DNA of 14,191 bases, from positions 1 through 14,191 of the forward strand of contig JANPJS010000296.1 of assembly GCA_031425655.1 (NCBI GenBank), written 5' to 3'. The notes under the pieces are model-generated. The model was not told the origin of the DNA and made no database searches. It saw nothing but the letters and a program-made list of their open reading frames with translations. Below, one piece after another: positions 1,680 through 14,170 of the stretch. The stretch is from Abditibacteriaceae bacterium. Its GTDB lineage: Bacteria; Armatimonadota; Abditibacteriia; Abditibacteriales; Abditibacteriaceae. A program made the translations under genes and the position numbers. Each line of letters starts with the position of its first letter. Within the stretch, counting starts at the first letter, position 1.

Positions 1680-1804
1680 AATGGAACACGGGCTTCGCAC
1701 ACGGAAACAACACAGAAGGCACTGATCAATCCAAAAAATCCGTGTCAATCCGTGTCGTTTCGGGCGCCCTCTGGGCAGGATCGGCGAAGCCGCCGTGTTC
1801 CATT
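1680..1804. repeat. Palindromic intergenic element (REP/MITE-like), family A copy 1
   Basis: Termini aatggaacacgg / ccgtgttccatt are perfect inverted repeats, with inner gcttcgc/gcgaagc and gaaacaacacaga / tccgtgtcgtttc arms. Homologous to 9886-9994. Confidence 0.85.
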
Positions 1805-1822: not shown

Positions 1823-3751
1823 TCAAGCCGAAGAACCGGATTTCTCTTCTTCGACGAGTTTCGCGATAAGTTCGGTGCGGGACATTGAGCCTAAATCTTG
1901 ACGCCCGCGCCCGCGCAGCGAAACCGCGCCGTTTTCCACCTCGCGGTCGCCGATGACGGCCATGTAAGGAATCTTCTGCGCTTCGGCGATGGCGACTTTG
2001 GCGCCGACTTTCTCGTTGTCGAAATTCATCTCGACGCGAAAACCTGATTCCGTAAGCTGCGCCGCGACTTGGCGCGCATAATCCTGATGGCGGTCGGCAA
2101 TCGGCAGAAGCATCACTTGAACCGGCGCCAGCCAAAGCGGAAATGCGCCCGCAAAATGTTCGATCAGCACGCCCATAAAGCGTTCGATGCTGCCAAACGG
2201 CGCGCGGTGAATCATCACGGGGCGGTGCGCTTTGCCGTCGGCGCCGATGTATTCCAAGCCGAAGCGTTCGGGCAAAACGTAATCAACTTGGACCGTGCCA
2301 AGCTGCCACTGCCGGCCAATGGCGTCGTTGACGATGAAATCGAGTTTCGGGCCGTAAATCGCGGCTTCGCCTTCGGCCACGAAGTGCTCCATTCCTAATT
2401 CCTGCACGGCGCCGAGCAAGGCGCTTTGTGCGGCTTCCCACGCTTCATCGCTGCCGATGTATTTTTCGCCGTTGTTCGGATCGCGCAGGCTAACGCGGGC
2501 GGTATAATTCAAATTCAAGCGGCGCAAAACTGCGAGAACCAAATCCACATTGGCTTTGAATTCATCGGCGAGTTGGTCGGGCGCCACGAAAAGATGCGCG
2601 TCGTCCTGTGTGAAGCCGCGCACGCGCGTTAATCCGCCGACTTCGCCGCTTTGCTCCCAGCGATAAACGGTGCCGAATTCGGCCAGTCGCAGCGGCAAAT
2701 CACGATACGAACGCTGCTGGCTCTTGTAAATCTGAATGTGAAACGGGCAGTTGACCGGCTTGAGCACGAATTCTTCGCCGCTGTCGCTGGTCATGGTCGG
2801 GAACATGGATTCCTTATAAGCCTCCATGTGCCCAGAAATTTTAAACAATTCGGTGCGCGCGATGTGCGGCGTGTAAACCGGCTGATAACCGCGCTTGACC
2901 AATTCTCCGCGAATATAATCTTCTAAAACGCGGCGAATCGTGGCGCCTTTGGGCAGCCAGAGCGGGAGGCCGGCGCCGACTTCGGGCGAAAGCATGAACA
3001 AACCCAGTTCGCGCCCCAGTTTGCGGTGGTCGCGCGCTTTGGCTTGTTCGAGGCGCTCCATGTGCTCGTCAAGTTCTTTTTGCGACGGATAACTGGTGCC
3101 GTAAAGCCGCTGCAACTGCTTGTTATTGGCATCGCCGCGCCAGAAAGCGCCGGACGCGGCCAGTATTTTCACGGATTTAATCAGCCCGGTTGAAGGCAAA
3201 TGCGGCCCGCGACAAAGGTCAACCCAATCGCCCTGCCGGTAAAGCGTGATTTTCTCGTCGGCGGGAATGTCTTCGAGCAACTCGACTTTGTAATCTTCGC
3301 CCAAACCGGCGAAAAGCTGGCGCGCTTCGGCGCGCGAGACTTCTTCGCGCAGAATCGGTAAATCGGCTTTAGCCAATTCGCGCATTTTGTCTTCGATGGC
3401 CGCAAAATCGGCTTCGCCAATCGGCGCCATGTCAATATCGTAGTAGTAGCGATCCTCAAGCGGCGGGCCGACCGTTAATTTCGCGTTCGGATAGAGCGCT
3501 TTAACCGCCATCGCCATCAAGTGCGTGCTGGAATGGCGATAAATTTCGCGCCCTTCGGCATCGTTCCAAGTCAGCAGGCGAAGCCCGCAGTCGCCGGGCA
3601 AAGGCCGCGTCAAATCCCACGGCTGACCGTCCACGATTGCGCCCAGCGCAGCCTGCGCCAAACGCCGACCGATGCTTTCGGCCACTTGTTTAGGCGAAAC
3701 ACCGTCTTCAAATTCTCGAACACTTCCGTCAGGAAAACTCACGCGCATCAT
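1823..3751 (-). CDS. thrS: Threonine--tRNA ligase
   Basis: TGS N-terminus, editing motifs RHSSTH and DLCRGPH, RDHRKLG, KPVNCPFH, GLTRVRGFTQDDAH, YGPKLD, MIHRAPFGSIERF, anticodon-binding domain; upstream of infC. Confidence 0.99.
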   Translation of the reverse strand: MMRVSFPDGSVREFEDGVSPKQVAESIGRRLAQAALGAIVDGQPWDLTRPLPGDCGLRLLTWNDAEGREIYRHSSTHLMAMAVKALYPNAKLTVGPPLEDRYYYDIDMAPIGEADFAAIEDKMRELAKADLPILREEVSRAEARQLFAGLGEDYKVELLEDIPADEKITLYRQGDWVDLCRGPHLPSTGLIKSVKILAASGAFWRGDANNKQLQRLYGTSYPSQKELDEHMERLEQAKARDHRKLGRELGLFMLSPEVGAGLPLWLPKGATIRRVLEDYIRGELVKRGYQPVYTPHIARTELFKISGHMEAYKESMFPTMTSDSGEEFVLKPVNCPFHIQIYKSQQRSYRDLPLRLAEFGTVYRWEQSGEVGGLTRVRGFTQDDAHLFVAPDQLADEFKANVDLVLAVLRRLNLNYTARVSLRDPNNGEKYIGSDEAWEAAQSALLGAVQELGMEHFVAEGEAAIYGPKLDFIVNDAIGRQWQLGTVQVDYVLPERFGLEYIGADGKAHRPVMIHRAPFGSIERFMGVLIEHFAGAFPLWLAPVQVMLLPIADRHQDYARQVAAQLTESGFRVEMNFDNEKVGAKVAIAEAQKIPYMAVIGDREVENGAVSLRGRGRQDLGSMSRTELIAKLVEEEKSGSSA

Positions 3752-3776
3752 AAAATTGCCTCAAAACAGCCTTTCA

Positions 3777-3806
3777 ATTATGACAGCATCGCGCGCGGCG
3801 GGGCAA
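3777..3806 (-). promoter_or_regulatory. Putative thrS promoter
   Basis: TTGCCC-18 nt-CATAAT with TG extension on the - strand, 25 nt upstream of the ATG. Confidence 0.4.
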
Positions 3807-3936
3807 GCCGAACCGTTCCTCAAACAAAATGCGGCCTCATTGATCTCTGCGGTAAAAACAAGGCCGATTTCGCGCGTCGTGTCAAGTCTGGAAAGCGGCT
3901 CGTGGCCGTGTCACACTGAGCGCCTAATGAACCCAA

Positions 3937-4362
3937 AAGAGAAATTAACCGCCGATGCACGCCGATAAACACAGATGATATAGAGATAAGAATTCGGTCG
4001 GTTTCAGAAATGATGCCGGCGGTTTTTTCATCAAAAGCAAAAGGGCGATTTTCTTTTGTCCTATCTTGGGTCTTAGAGTCTGTGCTCGAATAAAGTTATT
4101 TGGGTAAAAACGGCCCAACGGCAAAAAATTGAGTGGCAAAAAATAAGGGCATCCATGGCATGTCGGATGAGAAATCCCACTTTCTCACCATTTTTTGCCA
4201 CTCAATTTTTTGCCACTCAATGGCAACGGACTGAATAACTCTTTTTGAGCACAGACTTTTAGCAGATTTGATTTTGGCAACATTCAAACCCGGCATCATT
4301 TCTGAAGCACGACCAGGAATTCATCTGCGTTTATCAGCGTGCATCCGCGGTTAAATTCTCTT
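3937..4362. repeat. Composite of four nested inverted-repeat pairs
   Basis: Pairs are 3937-3978/4321-4362 (38/42), 3996-4025/4286-4314 (17-bp perfect core), 4077-4100/4234-4257 (21/24) and 4120-4144/4190-4214 (25/25). Confidence 0.92.
4076..4258. mobile_element. Putative MITE (IS5-like ends), 183 bp, nested in the composite repeat
   Basis: Terminal inverted repeats gagtctgtgctc... / ...gagcacagactt are flanked on both sides by TTA (4073-4075, 4259-4261). No credible ORF inside. Confidence 0.55.
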
Positions 4363-4372
4363 CATCGCAGCC

Positions 4373-6130
4373 ATGTTTCGTAAGCATCAAGATCAGTTCG
4401 GCCAAATTTGCGCGGCGATTCGCAGCGGCGAAAAGCGCCATATTAAGCGCATCGTCTGCGCGACCACGCCGGGCGGCGGCAAAAGCCTACTGCCGCTGAT
4501 TGCCGCGAATGAATTGATTCCCGCCATCGCCGAGCGCCTTTGCTGGGTTGTGCCGCGCCGTGCGCTGCAATTGCAGGCCGAACAAGAGTTCGTCCAAGCA
4601 CGAGGCCGCCAACTTCTCGGACACCAGCACGTCATTCGCCGCGCCGTCAACGAACTTGATCCGGCGCGCGGACTTTCCGGTTTCGCCACCACTTATCAAG
4701 CTATCGGGCTGGGAAACGCGCATTTAGTCGAAGAATTCAAGCGTTATCGCTACATTTTGGTGCTGGACGAGCCGCATCACGTCGAAGAAGGCGGGCTGTG
4801 GTCTACGACGCTCGAACCTTTGGTCAACCGCGCCGCGCTGACGGTTTTTATGAGCGGCACGCTGGAACGTGGCAATCGCAAGCGCATCGCGTTTTTGCCT
4901 TATTTGGCCACCAAAGATGGCGAAGTCGTGGATTTATACGGCGACCCGCAAACCGCCGGCATCAATTATTCGCGGCGCGATGCCCTTGTCGAAAAAGCCA
5001 TTTTGCCGATTCATTTCGAGCTGATGGACGGCACGAGTGAATGGATCGGGACCGACGGTGAAACTTACAGCATTCGCTTGTCCGAAGCCAACAAAAACAC
5101 CGCCGAAGCGGTTTATACGGCCCTCAAAACGCAGTTCGCCGAGCAACTTCTCGACGAATGCTCCGCGCATTGGGTGAGTTACAAAAAATCGCATCCGCGC
5201 TCGAAATTGTTGGTCGTGACGGCCAACATCGAAGACGCCCAAAAATACGTGGATTATCTGCTGTCGCAAGGCATCTCCGCCGCGATTGCCACCAGCGAAG
5301 ATTCCTCTAAAGCCGCCGCCAACATCGAACGCTACAAAGAGTGCGGCACGGCGAAAGCGATGGACGCTTTAGTCACGGTGGCGATGGCTTACGAAGGTTT
5401 GGATGTGCCGCCGATCACGCACATCGCGTGCTTGACGCACATTCGCAGCAAGCCATGGATCGAGCAAATGCTGGCTCGCGCCACGCGCTTCGACGCGGCT
5501 GCCGGCCCGTGGGAAAGCCAGATGGCCTACGTTTACGTGCCCGACGACCGCAATATGGTCGGGATTATTCAAGCGATGGAAAACGATCAGCGTGTCGCCG
5601 TGCGCGGCATGGTTTTCGACGCCGACGAAACGCCGCCCAACATCGGCGAAGCCAGCGAACGCTCAACTATCACGCCAGTCGGCAGCCAGGCCGAGCAAAG
5701 CCGCTGGAGCCAAATGGGCAATCTTTTCGCGTGGGCCGGCGAAGAATGGGCAATGGGCGAAGAAAAGCCCTTTTCGCCCGCCGCGTCCGCGCAACTGACT
5801 TTGCCCAGCACCGCACAGCCGCATTTGCCCAACCTCACGCCGAGCCAAATGGAAGCCGATCTGCGCCGCAAAATTGACGACTACTGCAAAGACCTCGACC
5901 GCTATCAATTCGGCGGCAAGTGGGGCGCAGCCAACGCCGCCATCACGCGCCAATTTTCCACGCCACGCTCGCAAATGGCGCTTTCGCAACTCAGCAAAGT
6001 CGTGCAGTGGCTCGAAGAAACTTACAACCTCGGTCGCCCCGTCGCACCGCCCCCACGCCGCGCCGCTTCGCCAAAACCAGCGCAGCAGAGCCACGTTTTG
6101 GTATTTCCCACGCGCAGCAAGGCGGATTAG
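4373..6130 (+). CDS. Superfamily 2 DEAD/DEAH-box (ResIII-like) helicase
   Basis: Q-like FRKHQ, Walker A TPGGGKS, Ia WVVPRRAL, Ib TTYQ, Walker B LDEPHH, III SGT, V MAYEGLDVP, VI EQMLARATR, plus a low-complexity linker and a small helical C-terminal domain. Confidence 0.92.
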   Translation: MFRKHQDQFGQICAAIRSGEKRHIKRIVCATTPGGGKSLLPLIAANELIPAIAERLCWVVPRRALQLQAEQEFVQARGRQLLGHQHVIRRAVNELDPARGLSGFATTYQAIGLGNAHLVEEFKRYRYILVLDEPHHVEEGGLWSTTLEPLVNRAALTVFMSGTLERGNRKRIAFLPYLATKDGEVVDLYGDPQTAGINYSRRDALVEKAILPIHFELMDGTSEWIGTDGETYSIRLSEANKNTAEAVYTALKTQFAEQLLDECSAHWVSYKKSHPRSKLLVVTANIEDAQKYVDYLLSQGISAAIATSEDSSKAAANIERYKECGTAKAMDALVTVAMAYEGLDVPPITHIACLTHIRSKPWIEQMLARATRFDAAAGPWESQMAYVYVPDDRNMVGIIQAMENDQRVAVRGMVFDADETPPNIGEASERSTITPVGSQAEQSRWSQMGNLFAWAGEEWAMGEEKPFSPAASAQLTLPSTAQPHLPNLTPSQMEADLRRKIDDYCKDLDRYQFGGKWGAANAAITRQFSTPRSQMALSQLSKVVQWLEETYNLGRPVAPPPRRAASPKPAQQSHVLVFPTRSKAD

Positions 6131-6666
6131 CGCGCGGTAGTAAGTTGTGATTTGCGCGGACGGCCACCTTTCGCGCCGTTGGCGCGACTGGCGGCGGTTT
6201 TGGCCTCGCTCTTGACACTGCCGGCACGCCGCGCAATTTCGCGCACCGTTGGGCCGCCGCGCAGGCGACTTAATAACTCCTGGCGCTCTATCGAGGCCGA
6301 ATCCAACGCGCCGGATTCGATTAAATGGCGCATCCACTTGAGTGTTCCAAAGCTGCCCGCCGCCAAGTCTTGCACCAATAAATCCGCGTCCAATTCTTCC
6401 CAATGCAAACCCATACCGCTGCACAAAATTTCTACCTTTTCTATCAATTCGGGCGGCGCTCCAGCCACTCCCTGTAGCAAACGCACCGGAACAAGTAGCA
6501 CGGCGCCGCCGCGCAAGCCCAACACAAGATGGCCGCTGCTCGCTTCGTAATGCGCCGATACCGCACGCACTTCGCTGACTTCCGCTTCCATGCCGCGCCA
6601 TTCGGCGGCCGCCAAGTCGTCATCGGTGGCAGGCGTGAAAGCCGCAGGATTACCGTTATTCGCCAT
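6127..6666 (-). CDS. DUF2442-like protein (putative antitoxin-type partner)
   Basis: L.L.LRGG....VP...LQG...A..E...VEI...G.GLHWEELDADL.V..L pattern and C-terminal KSEAKTAASRANGAKGGRPRK tail. Start placed at ATG 6666 (GGAG RBS); the GTG at 6675 is an alternative. Confidence 0.85.
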   Translation of the reverse strand: MANNGNPAAFTPATDDDLAAAEWRGMEAEVSEVRAVSAHYEASSGHLVLGLRGGAVLLVPVRLLQGVAGAPPELIEKVEILCSGMGLHWEELDADLLVQDLAAGSFGTLKWMRHLIESGALDSASIERQELLSRLRGGPTVREIARRAGSVKSEAKTAASRANGAKGGRPRKSQLTTAR

Positions 6667-6913
6667 GAATTTCACTCCACTGTTCGAGCAAGAGCGTCAA
6701 ATTTTCCGTCACAATTTGCAAAGCGCGACGCTGCGTCTGCCGGTTTAAGCCGTGTGCCTCGCGCACCCATAAAACGCCCGGCTCCCGTCCCTTTTCACCA
6801 TTGAGATAGACCACAAAAACGCCATCACCCTGTTTAATATGAACATGGGGCGGGAAGTGATCACGCGTGTAAATCAAGACCTGAAAACCGGCGATACGAA
6901 GCACAGTCGGCAT
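6656..6913 (-). CDS. DUF4160-like protein (putative toxin-type partner)
   Basis: MPTVLRIAGF...IYTRDHFPPHVH...L..W.EIHG pattern; 85 aa; overlaps the start of the DUF2442-like gene. Confidence 0.88.
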   Translation of the reverse strand: MPTVLRIAGFQVLIYTRDHFPPHVHIKQGDGVFVVYLNGEKGREPGVLWVREAHGLNRQTQRRALQIVTENLTLLLEQWSEIHGE

Positions 6914-6994: not shown

Positions 6995-7223
6995 TCATGT
7001 TACGCAGTTGAGGTGTGTTAGGCGGATAAACCACTCAGGCATTGAGTCATTCTGAGTCCTGCCCAGAGGGCACCCGGAAGAATCTAGGCGTAAGAGCCTC
7101 CTCACTCAGCATGAGCAAAAGCACCGCAGAGGCCGAGATTCTTCCGGGTGCCCTCTGGGCAGGACTCAGAATGACAGCGCTTCTTGAATTTGCCTGCCTA
7201 ACACACTCCACTGTGTAACATGA
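6995..7223. repeat. Nested inverted repeats: outer imperfect ~35-bp pair around a perfect 40-bp REP-like pair
   Basis: Outer pair is tcatgttacgcagttgaggtgtgttaggc / gcctaacacactccactgtgtaacatga. Inner 7046-7085 is the exact reverse complement of 7136-7175, with a 50-bp spacer. Confidence 0.92.
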
Positions 7224-9885: not shown

Positions 9886-9994
9886 AACGGGACACGGAGC
9901 CTTCGGCCACACGGAAACAACACGGATTTTCACAGATCAATCCAAAACCGTGTCAATCTGTGCTGTTTCCGTGTGCGAAGTTCCGTGTTCCATT
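9886..9994. repeat. Palindromic intergenic element (REP/MITE-like), family A copy 2
   Basis: aacgggacacgga..cttcg..cacacggaaacaacacggat...atctgtgctgtttccgtgtgcgaagttccgtgttccatt is self-complementary and shares long blocks with 1680-1804. Confidence 0.85.
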
Positions 9995-13163: not shown

Positions 13164-14170
13164 TGACCCCGCTTCTGCTTTTAGTCGGCCCGACGGGAAG
13201 CGGTAAAACCGCAACGGCCATCGAATTGTGCCAAATGCTTGATGGCGAAATCGTGTCTGCGGATTCGATGCAAATCTATCGCGGCTGCGACATCGTGACG
13301 GCCAAACCGAGCGCCGCCGAACAAACTGCCGCGCGCCATCACCTGATTGACATTTGCGACCCGCGCGAAACTTATTCCGCCGCACGTTGGGCCGACGATG
13401 CGCGCCGCGCCATTGACGACATTGCTTCGCGCGGAAAAACGCCGATTATCGCCGGCGGCACAGGCTTCTATATTCGCGCGCTGCTTGACCCCGACCTCGT
13501 GGCGCCGGTGCCGCCAAACCCCGAACTGCGCGCTGAACTTGAAACTGAACTGGCCGCGCACGGCAAGCAATGGCTGCACGAAAAACTGCGTTCGCTGGAC
13601 TCTGCCGCCGCCGCGCGTTTGCATTTCAACGATGTGCATCGTGTAATGCGTGCGATTGAAGTGGTGGACGGCGGGAGGCGGACGGCGGGAGGCGGGAGGC
13701 GGGAGGCGGACGGCGGGAGGCGGGAGGCGGGAAGCGGACGGCGGGAGGCGGACGGCAGTCAGCTAAGCGACCAACTGCCTCCTGCCTCCTGCTTCCTGCC
13801 GTCGGTCTTCGGCCTCGCCGTGCCGCGCGAAACGCTTTATCTACGACTCGAAACGCGCGTGGACGCGATGCTGGCAATGGGCGCCTTAGACGAACTGCGG
13901 GGTTTGCTCGAAAGCGGCGTTCCGACTGACGCGCCGGCTTTGCAGGGCGTTGGTTATCGCCAGCTTTTGCCGGCGCTGGATGACCCGTCGCAACTGCCCG
14001 CCGCCGTCGAATTGTGGAAACGCGACACACGCCGCTATGCCAAGCGCCAGATGACGTGGTTTCGCCATCAATTGCCGACGCAATGGTTTGAAATAGATGA
14101 ATCGGAGCCGTCAGACATTGCGCGACAAATCGCGCTGCAATGGCGCGCCGGGCACCACTCAGAACGATAA
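13163..14170 (+). CDS. miaA: tRNA (adenosine(37)-N6)-dimethylallyltransferase
   Basis: GPTGSGKT, EIVSADSMQIYRG.DI.TAKP, HHLIDI, GGTGFY, RAIEV, GVGYRQ, TRRYAKRQMTWFR; TAATG stop/start overlap with the upstream gene. Confidence 0.98.
   Translation: MTPLLLLVGPTGSGKTATAIELCQMLDGEIVSADSMQIYRGCDIVTAKPSAAEQTAARHHLIDICDPRETYSAARWADDARRAIDDIASRGKTPIIAGGTGFYIRALLDPDLVAPVPPNPELRAELETELAAHGKQWLHEKLRSLDSAAAARLHFNDVHRVMRAIEVVDGGRRTAGGGRREADGGRREAGSGRREADGSQLSDQLPPASCFLPSVFGLAVPRETLYLRLETRVDAMLAMGALDELRGLLESGVPTDAPALQGVGYRQLLPALDDPSQLPAAVELWKRDTRRYAKRQMTWFRHQLPTQWFEIDESEPSDIARQIALQWRAGHHSER
13663..13802 (+). repeat. Heptamer tandem repeat (GGCGGGA/GGCGGAC x13) plus inverted heptamers (CTGCCTC-like x4), in frame within miaA
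   Basis: 13 units at 13663-13753; complementary-type units at 13775-13802. Confidence 0.92.

Follow-up and report, generated by a model that had tools for sequence, protein, structure and literature searches.

How did four inverted-repeat pairs come to lie one inside another within 426 bp between two genes? The stack occupies positions 3937-4362 of the window, by which we mean the whole 14,191-nt stretch of DNA analysed, contig C296 (G000:C296) of a 5.98 Mb assembly with 57% GC in 327 contigs. On one side is thrS (minus strand, start 3751), and on the other a plus-strand superfamily-2 helicase gene (ResIII/DEAD/Helicase_C, 4373-6130), a downstream host gene and not a mobilising gene. The reading we favour, with a probability of roughly 0.87, is that a non-coding mobile stack arose in the helicase leader through three insertions. 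First to enter would have been a hairpin doublet linked to GxxExxY genes (IR1); a 133-bp IS1-type MITE (IR2) would have inserted into IR1, and a 183-bp IS5-type MITE (IR3), already carrying the innermost pair (IR4) as its core, would have inserted into the IS1-type MITE.

The outermost right arm stops 10 nt upstream of the helicase ATG. A leader motif at 3864-3923, kept in three congeners, anchors the empty site described below and may have a promoter-like function; a promoter scan returned one weak site only, belonging to thrS. The stack separates this conserved motif from the helicase start codon, and an effect on helicase expression is predicted. Elsewhere in the window, a DUF4160-DUF2442 gene pair (6127-6913), which we take to be a putative toxin-antitoxin pair, is convergent with the helicase, and the miaA gene carries an in-frame 7/14-bp tandem repeat (13649-13767) that accounts for approximately 35 extra residues.

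All four concentric pairs described in the first-pass annotation were recovered at the same positions. The IR1 arms (3937-3978 on the plus strand and 4321-4362 on the minus strand) differ at 4 of 42 positions. In IR2 the arms match perfectly over a 17-bp core (4003-4019/4290-4306), and the repeat as a whole reaches out to 3996 and 4314. The IR3 arms (4077-4100/4234-4257) have 3 mismatches in 24, and the true ends lie one base further out at 4076 and 4258, while the IR4 arms (4120-4144/4190-4214) match at 25 of 25 positions. The sequence between the arms is non-complementary, as had been noted, the IR3-IR4 spacers being mismatched at 16 of 19 positions; a recent fold-back origin of the IS5-type MITE was therefore rejected. 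GAATTC, which had been assigned to the outer ends of IR2, lies outside that repeat and belongs to an 8-bp target duplication, A(A/G)GAATTC, at 3988-3995 and 4315-4322. Two small hairpins reported within IR4 showed no conservation when diverged copies were aligned. The four pairs had also been called unrelated; this holds for IR1 and IR2, which are separate, and fails for IR3 and IR4, which travel as a single unit.

BLAST of the region against its own genome gave full-length matches for 4072-4262 only. This segment contains the youngest layer, a 183-bp element at 4076-4258 on the plus strand with IR3 ends (4076-4100 and 4234-4258), flanked by TTA target duplications at 4073-4075 and 4259-4261. 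The genome holds 16 full copies (181-199 bp) and 3 partial copies. Ten of the 15 other full copies are 93-99% identical to the window copy, the nearest at 98.9%, and an identical TNA triplet flanks both sides in 14 of the 16, at unrelated sites. The combined IR3+IR4 element thus has the hallmarks of a MITE: 25-bp inverted ends, a length of 183 bp, within the 70-300 bp usual for such elements, with no ORF of 50 aa fully inside, a target duplication, an empty site, and a dispersed multi-copy family.

No transposase with IR3 ends was found among the 327 contigs of this assembly, and the IS5-family matches at C52, C110, and C267 have ends that differ from IR3. In relatives, IR3-type ends bound elements of approximately 880-900 bp with two reading frames (G002, of the same genus, G021, and G009). 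The frames of one such element (L064, G002) match DUF4096 (E 5e-26) and DDE_Tnp_1 (E 6e-19), and those of two others (L041 and L042) resemble them by inspection. Compared with IS5-family insertion sequences of this DUF4096 + DDE_Tnp_1 type, the MITE has like ends, identical at 19-21 of 25 bases to the autonomous ones, and the same kind of 3-bp TNA duplication, but it has no transposase and no match beyond the outer 25 bp. As regards the subgroup of the MITE and its partner, we take the TNA duplication and GAG ends to recall IS1031 and the two reading frames to recall IS427. We infer that an IS5 transposase mobilised the 183-bp MITE in trans and that the TNA target was chosen by sequence. Records with paired IR3 ends come mostly from Abditibacterium or Abditibacteriaceae. 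In G014, G020, and G042 these ends surround a doublet of another family, and in G021 no recognisable core.

IR4 itself is a hairpin doublet (4120-4214) with a 15-bp internal periodicity, and it forms the core of the MITE in 16 of 16 full copies. Since the doublet is fixed within the element, the site records three insertions and not the four originally proposed. Free IR4 doublets occur at C106, C152, C45, and C60, and at C106 IR4 stands on either side of a 261-aa gene that scores above the TIGR04256 GxxExxY cut-off (53.5 vs 35 bits). That gene (L068, 377-1162, G000:C106) is a long GxxExxY variant with a C-terminal extension, and its contig holds five IR4-type loci. In two MITE copies (C256 and C319:1110) the stretch enclosed by the IR4 arms has been flipped, which demonstrates recombination across them. 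An exact-pattern scan of metagenome contigs for IR4 returned 3 loci, none informative. IR4 was captured by the IS5-type MITE earlier, and elsewhere than at this site.

Subtraction of 186 bp, that is, the inner MITE and one TTA, restores the layer outside it to a length of 133 bp, equal to that of its siblings at C254, C66, and C127. Its left part (3996-4072, plus strand) comprises the IR2 left end, with a 1-bp deletion, and interior sequence; its right part (4262-4314, plus strand) carries the IR2 right end. The nearest sibling, at C254, is identical in 99 of 132 aligned columns (75%). A 772-bp element at C251 is bounded by IR2-type ends and an 8/8 duplication and encodes InsA/InsB domains (DDE_Tnp_IS1, E 1.4e-37); with an InsA zinc ribbon/HTH, an IS1 DDE domain, and a length of ~770 bp, it corresponds to an autonomous IS1 partner.

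Target duplications of the IS1 family are 8-9 bp long. In the window the left copy (3988-3995, plus strand) is identical to the right copy (4315-4322, plus strand) at 7 of 8 positions, and the last two bases of the right copy overlap the IR1 right arm, so that the duplication straddles the loop-stem junction of IR1. In sequencing run X5, position 4316 is A, as in the left copy, and 4321 differs. Other family members match at 8/8 (C251), 6/8 (C66), 3/8 (C254), and 1/8 (C127, and a broken IS1 at C135). The window MITE resembles IS1-family insertion sequences in its GGT-initial ends, like those of the 772-bp InsA/InsB element, in its probable 8-bp duplication, and in its AT-rich target; it differs in being 133 bp long, non-coding, decayed, and interrupted by a second MITE. 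An IS1 transposase would have mobilised it in trans, the AT-rich target again being chosen by sequence. The window had been noted to contain no mobilising gene; candidates are found elsewhere, for IS1 in the same genome (G000:C251) and for IS5 in relatives. Mobilisation of MITEs in trans is established MITE biology, as set out in the accessible part of PMC2229807.

The outermost layer belongs to a hairpin-doublet family whose arms have a 10-bp internal periodicity. With the rest of its AT-rich spacer (3979-3987), the reconstructed empty doublet measures 99 bp, with a spacer of 15 nt. A motif scan found 105 IR1 arms in the genome, 84 of them paired into 42 pairs, of which 37 lie outside called genes; spacers are 7-85 bp in 35 of the 42 pairs, with a mean GC of 0.38. 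Arm identity averaged 0.91 within pairs and 0.83 between pairs (0/2000 permutations; 33 pairs tested). Any inverted copying of the flanks by IR1 doublets is marginal (0.44 vs 0.39 over the outer 10 bp; 51/2000 permutations). The first-pass annotation had mentioned a link between such repeats and GxxExxY genes, and the link is seen here: one IR1 pair encloses a GxxExxY (PF13366) gene at C298, and two IR1 pairs flank another at C126. By inspection, inverted-repeat arms, mostly of distinct families, flank all 9 PF13366 genes. IR1 and IR4 are thus two arm families that join this pairing of GxxExxY nuclease and hairpin. The association suggests, less firmly than the transposase links above, that the doublets may spread by a GxxExxY-nuclease route without target duplication.

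Several related repeats were observed. Between the arms of two IR1 pairs (C169:12971-13416 and C269:1754-2342, G000) lie 380-520 bp that look like coding sequence and have no relation to GxxExxY, possibly a result of gene capture. Within the window, 1669-1815 and approximately 9890-9990 are gene-less doublets like the arms flanking the GxxExxY gene at C215; the former, situated in the spacer between thrS and infC, is interrupted in one arm by a small palindrome. A palindrome of ~20 bp, with 130-225 matches genome-wide by motif, occurs within the arms of several unrelated repeat families (for example window 1758-1780, C175, C186, and C298), as well as in 14 IR1 arms and the broken IS1 at C135. 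Of the elements seen here, it is the most promising case of insertion genuinely directed by repeats.

Alleles of the site bear on the order of events. In a 247-bp contig from run X5, position 4070 is followed directly by 4257, so that 186 bp (the IS5-type MITE and one TTA) are missing, and the sequence continues through IR2 and IR1 into the helicase. This two-layer allele comes from one contig at a depth of 3.4, with 39 letters on the short side, in a strain approximately 4% diverged; another X5 contig covers 3855-4047. No joints were listed among contigs of runs X1-X4. A 142-bp joint in run X6, with 21 letters on the short side, was discounted, since it probably comes from a different element bounded by these ends. 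In the congeners G001-G003 the distance from leader motif to helicase ATG is 36-55 nt, against 449 nt here, so that three of three are without the stack; there is no sign of a duplication at the empty site, and the helicase is not adjacent to thrS. The helicase leader in one of them (L005, G003) has a remnant of a different tandem-arm repeat at the same site, a sequence that suggests independent reuse of this leader.

The X5 contig lacking exactly 186 bp, together with the empty congeners, supports serial insertion in three events. The intermediates that had been predicted for this site are therefore represented by a zero-layer state in three congeners and a two-layer state in X5, and each layer is separately dispersed, in line with the original idea of serial insertion of independent multi-copy families. 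The order IR1, IS1-type MITE, IS5-type MITE follows from the target duplications and agrees with the degree of decay, nearest-copy identity being 75% for the IS1-type and 98.9% for the IS5-type MITE. An allele holding only IR1 did not turn up at this site, and IR1 is placed before IR2 on the strength of the 7/8 duplication.

The first-pass annotation had explained the nesting by structure-directed targeting, in which the hairpin or cruciform loop extruded by one element serves as the target of the next. The two inner insertions have ordinary IS1-type and IS5-type target duplications, so such targeting is unneeded, and we consider it unlikely. It was scored as the site lying between inverted arms, on crude gene calls, with 9 of 179 MITE copies near contig ends left out. 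Pooled over families, 18 of 170 sites lay inside inverted-repeat pairs against 10.8 expected (AT-matched, P=0.024 uncorrected, ~1.7-fold), and three of seven families had P values of 0.01-0.04 (A 6/22, C 5/24, D 3/14). Enclosure of other repeats by 4 of 42 IR1 doublets and the position of the IS1-type MITE at a loop-stem junction point the same way, and targeting of REPs by IS elements is described in the accessible part of PMC1525189. The IR3 family itself behaved as by chance, with 2 of 16 sites enclosed against 1.0 expected or, counted otherwise, 3 of 16 where 11% of intergenic TNA sites are enclosed (P=0.26). The excess was absent from the two largest families (B 1/38, E 1/51), and enclosure was seen for 0/5 sites in F and 1/6 among IS1-type elements. 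Given how many repeats the genome contains, some 6-11% of its intergenic sites fall inside inverted-repeat pairs in any case. The IS5-type MITE, moreover, entered a weakly structured part of the IS1-type MITE at a normal TTA. The small pooled excess is consistent with AT-rich targets and with survival where an insertion does no harm. Strict targeting of loops is unsupported, though some weak structural preference may operate. Under sequential insertion by sequence-chosen targets, nesting would persist because the spacer of an existing parasite offers a harmless landing place.

It is very improbable that the 426 bp constitute one functional rod-like ncRNA or a single element, an alternative raised in the first-pass annotation. 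The predicted fold is very stable: it reaches -196 kcal/mol, where shuffled sequences give -106 +/- 5.5 (z -16.4; 0/100 shuffles equally stable), and some arm positions co-vary among copies. Such co-variation is, however, expected from arm homogenisation in DNA. The complete stack occurs once only among the 41 genomes searched, its layers are separate dispersed families, and alleles with zero and two layers exist. Rfam gave 4 matches over the window at E<=1, all far below threshold, and the sole overlap scored 27.7 bits against a cut-off of 117; neither a conserved single unit nor a match to a known family of structured RNA was found.

An assembly artefact from collapsed repeats deserves hardly any weight: in run X1 the inner 190 bp of the MITE have a depth of ~275-415, about 25-35x that of the flanks (~11), none of the contigs listed from the runs spans the stack in one piece, and position 4162 is T in all X1 and X3 contigs and G in the window, but two single-copy X1 contigs (depth ~11) are identical to 3500-4100 and 4233-4779 and cover both junctions, one contig of a second sample (X3) covers 4075-4363, a third (X5) shows the precise empty site, and both target duplications are in register. 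X1 may be the source sample; the mismatch at 4162 means that single bases within the high-copy MITE may be uncertain. The four nested pairs are real, and are neither one RNA nor an assembly error.

The combination of IS ends and doublet core in the IS5-type MITE recurs across the genome. Its intergenic DNA holds approximately 1,000 inverted-repeat pairs, and at least 56 of them have a further pair inside, an undercount because the redundancy filter removed the window's own stack. A doublet core was present in 143 of 179 MITE copies, covering seven end-families and 15 shell-core combinations, against a background of 4.7% of 3,000 random intergenic windows; the former figure is biased upward, as families were chosen from nested pairs; core motifs were written after viewing, and copies are non-independent. 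By family, counting both orientations, cores were found in 24/26 (A), 29/39 (B), 14/26 (C), 12/14 (D), 42/52 (E), and 6/6 (F) copies. Coreless families also exist, namely the IS1-type MITE and a 209-bp IS5-type family. The ends of shells B and C are also those of autonomous DDE elements (C281 and C114), and the ends of shell E those of IS5 remnants at C52 and C267. Relatives searched for an autonomous partner to shell A or shell E yielded only short elements, and E-type ends there carry yet other cores. MITE halves reassort around cores to give both symmetric and mixed copies. Some of the shells and cores we take to be ISAs1-like, RAYT-type, or DUF559-type.

Three further arrangements were noted. 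A second stack in the window (6997-7222) consists of a shell-A MITE around a CGTC-type doublet (7046-7175; label after PMC3733652, as given in the available part of that paper), with a small palindrome in each arm and a TTTATC repeat on both sides. Shell D copies (for example C42:2316, C91:2276, and C10:10576) are TA-flanked, and most of the 14 abut repeat arms on both sides; these MITEs are possibly REP-targeted. At C198:4899-6249 (G000) the nesting order is reversed, a DDE transposase gene lying inside 49-bp arms of a family that serves elsewhere as a MITE core.

The step of the proposed history that we hold least firmly is that MITEs here would often form around, or capture, doublets, the composite then multiplying as a unit and its halves being reshuffled by recombination across the core arms. 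A stronger version, which we put forward only tentatively and think doubtful, is that nuclease-linked doublets seed the birth of MITEs: unrelated DDE IS ends (IS5, ISAs1-like, and others) would repeatedly close around them, and the doublets would in effect hijack the transposases. The doublet would then sit ~10-55 bp inside each IS end, where a central hairpin might improve the transposition substrate, or permit fold-back copying and the swapping of halves. If true, this would amount to a two-tier hyperparasitism, with a second dispersal route for the doublets and Russian-doll stacks across a bacterial family.

Taken singly, the parts of the stack are of known kinds; what deserves further study is the shell-core architecture. 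A literature search, mostly outside subscription journals and supplements, found no account of MITEs with REP-doublet cores or of GxxExxY-linked repeats. A close parallel to IR1 and IR4 is the REPIN-RAYT system, as described in the accessible part of PMC3116915. Both consist of extragenic, hairpin-forming doublets of inverted arms with a spacer and no target duplication, the arms are more alike within a doublet than between doublets, and both cluster around a small nuclease-type gene. The arms of IR1 and IR4, in contrast, are 10- or 15-bp tandem repeats and not palindromes, they lack a GTAG end, and the flanked genes found here encode PD-(D/E)XK GxxExxY proteins, not the RAYT tyrosine transposase.

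The bacterial MITEs Correia/NEMIS, RUP, and Nezha, from the available portions of PMC2229807, PMC3184786, and PMC10969869, resemble the two MITEs of the stack: they are short and non-coding, end like insertion sequences, occur in many copies with target duplications and empty sites, and lie next to genes with long predicted stem-loops; RUP is reported there to insert into IS elements. The stack differs in that two MITEs of different transposase families are nested one in the other, in that the core of the inner MITE is a doublet that also occurs free and flanks a nuclease gene, and in that the IR3 ends carry other cores in relatives.

Repeats nested in repeats are also known from the REP dimers inside longer palindromes of Anabaena variabilis (GTAG-15) and Halothiobacillus (CGTC-1), described in the accessible text of PMC3733652. 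There, as here, a repeat doublet lies within an outer inverted repeat, but in that text the outer palindromes are not tied to IS ends, whereas the shells described here have IS5-type, ISAs1-like, or other DDE ends, duplications, and swapped cores. IS elements that target or sit in REPs (PMC1525189 and PMC3184786, in the parts available) present the opposite geometry: in the former the IS lies inside or beside the REP, while here the doublet lies inside the IS ends. The origin of the interiors of bacterial MITEs is raised as a question in the available part of PMC2229807. At least 15 shell-core combinations with a recognisable free-living interior offer a test of the role of a hairpin core in MITE formation and movement, and because the stack is fully resolved through all four layers and the site has natural alleles with 0, 2, and 4 of them, each step of its assembly lends itself to testing.
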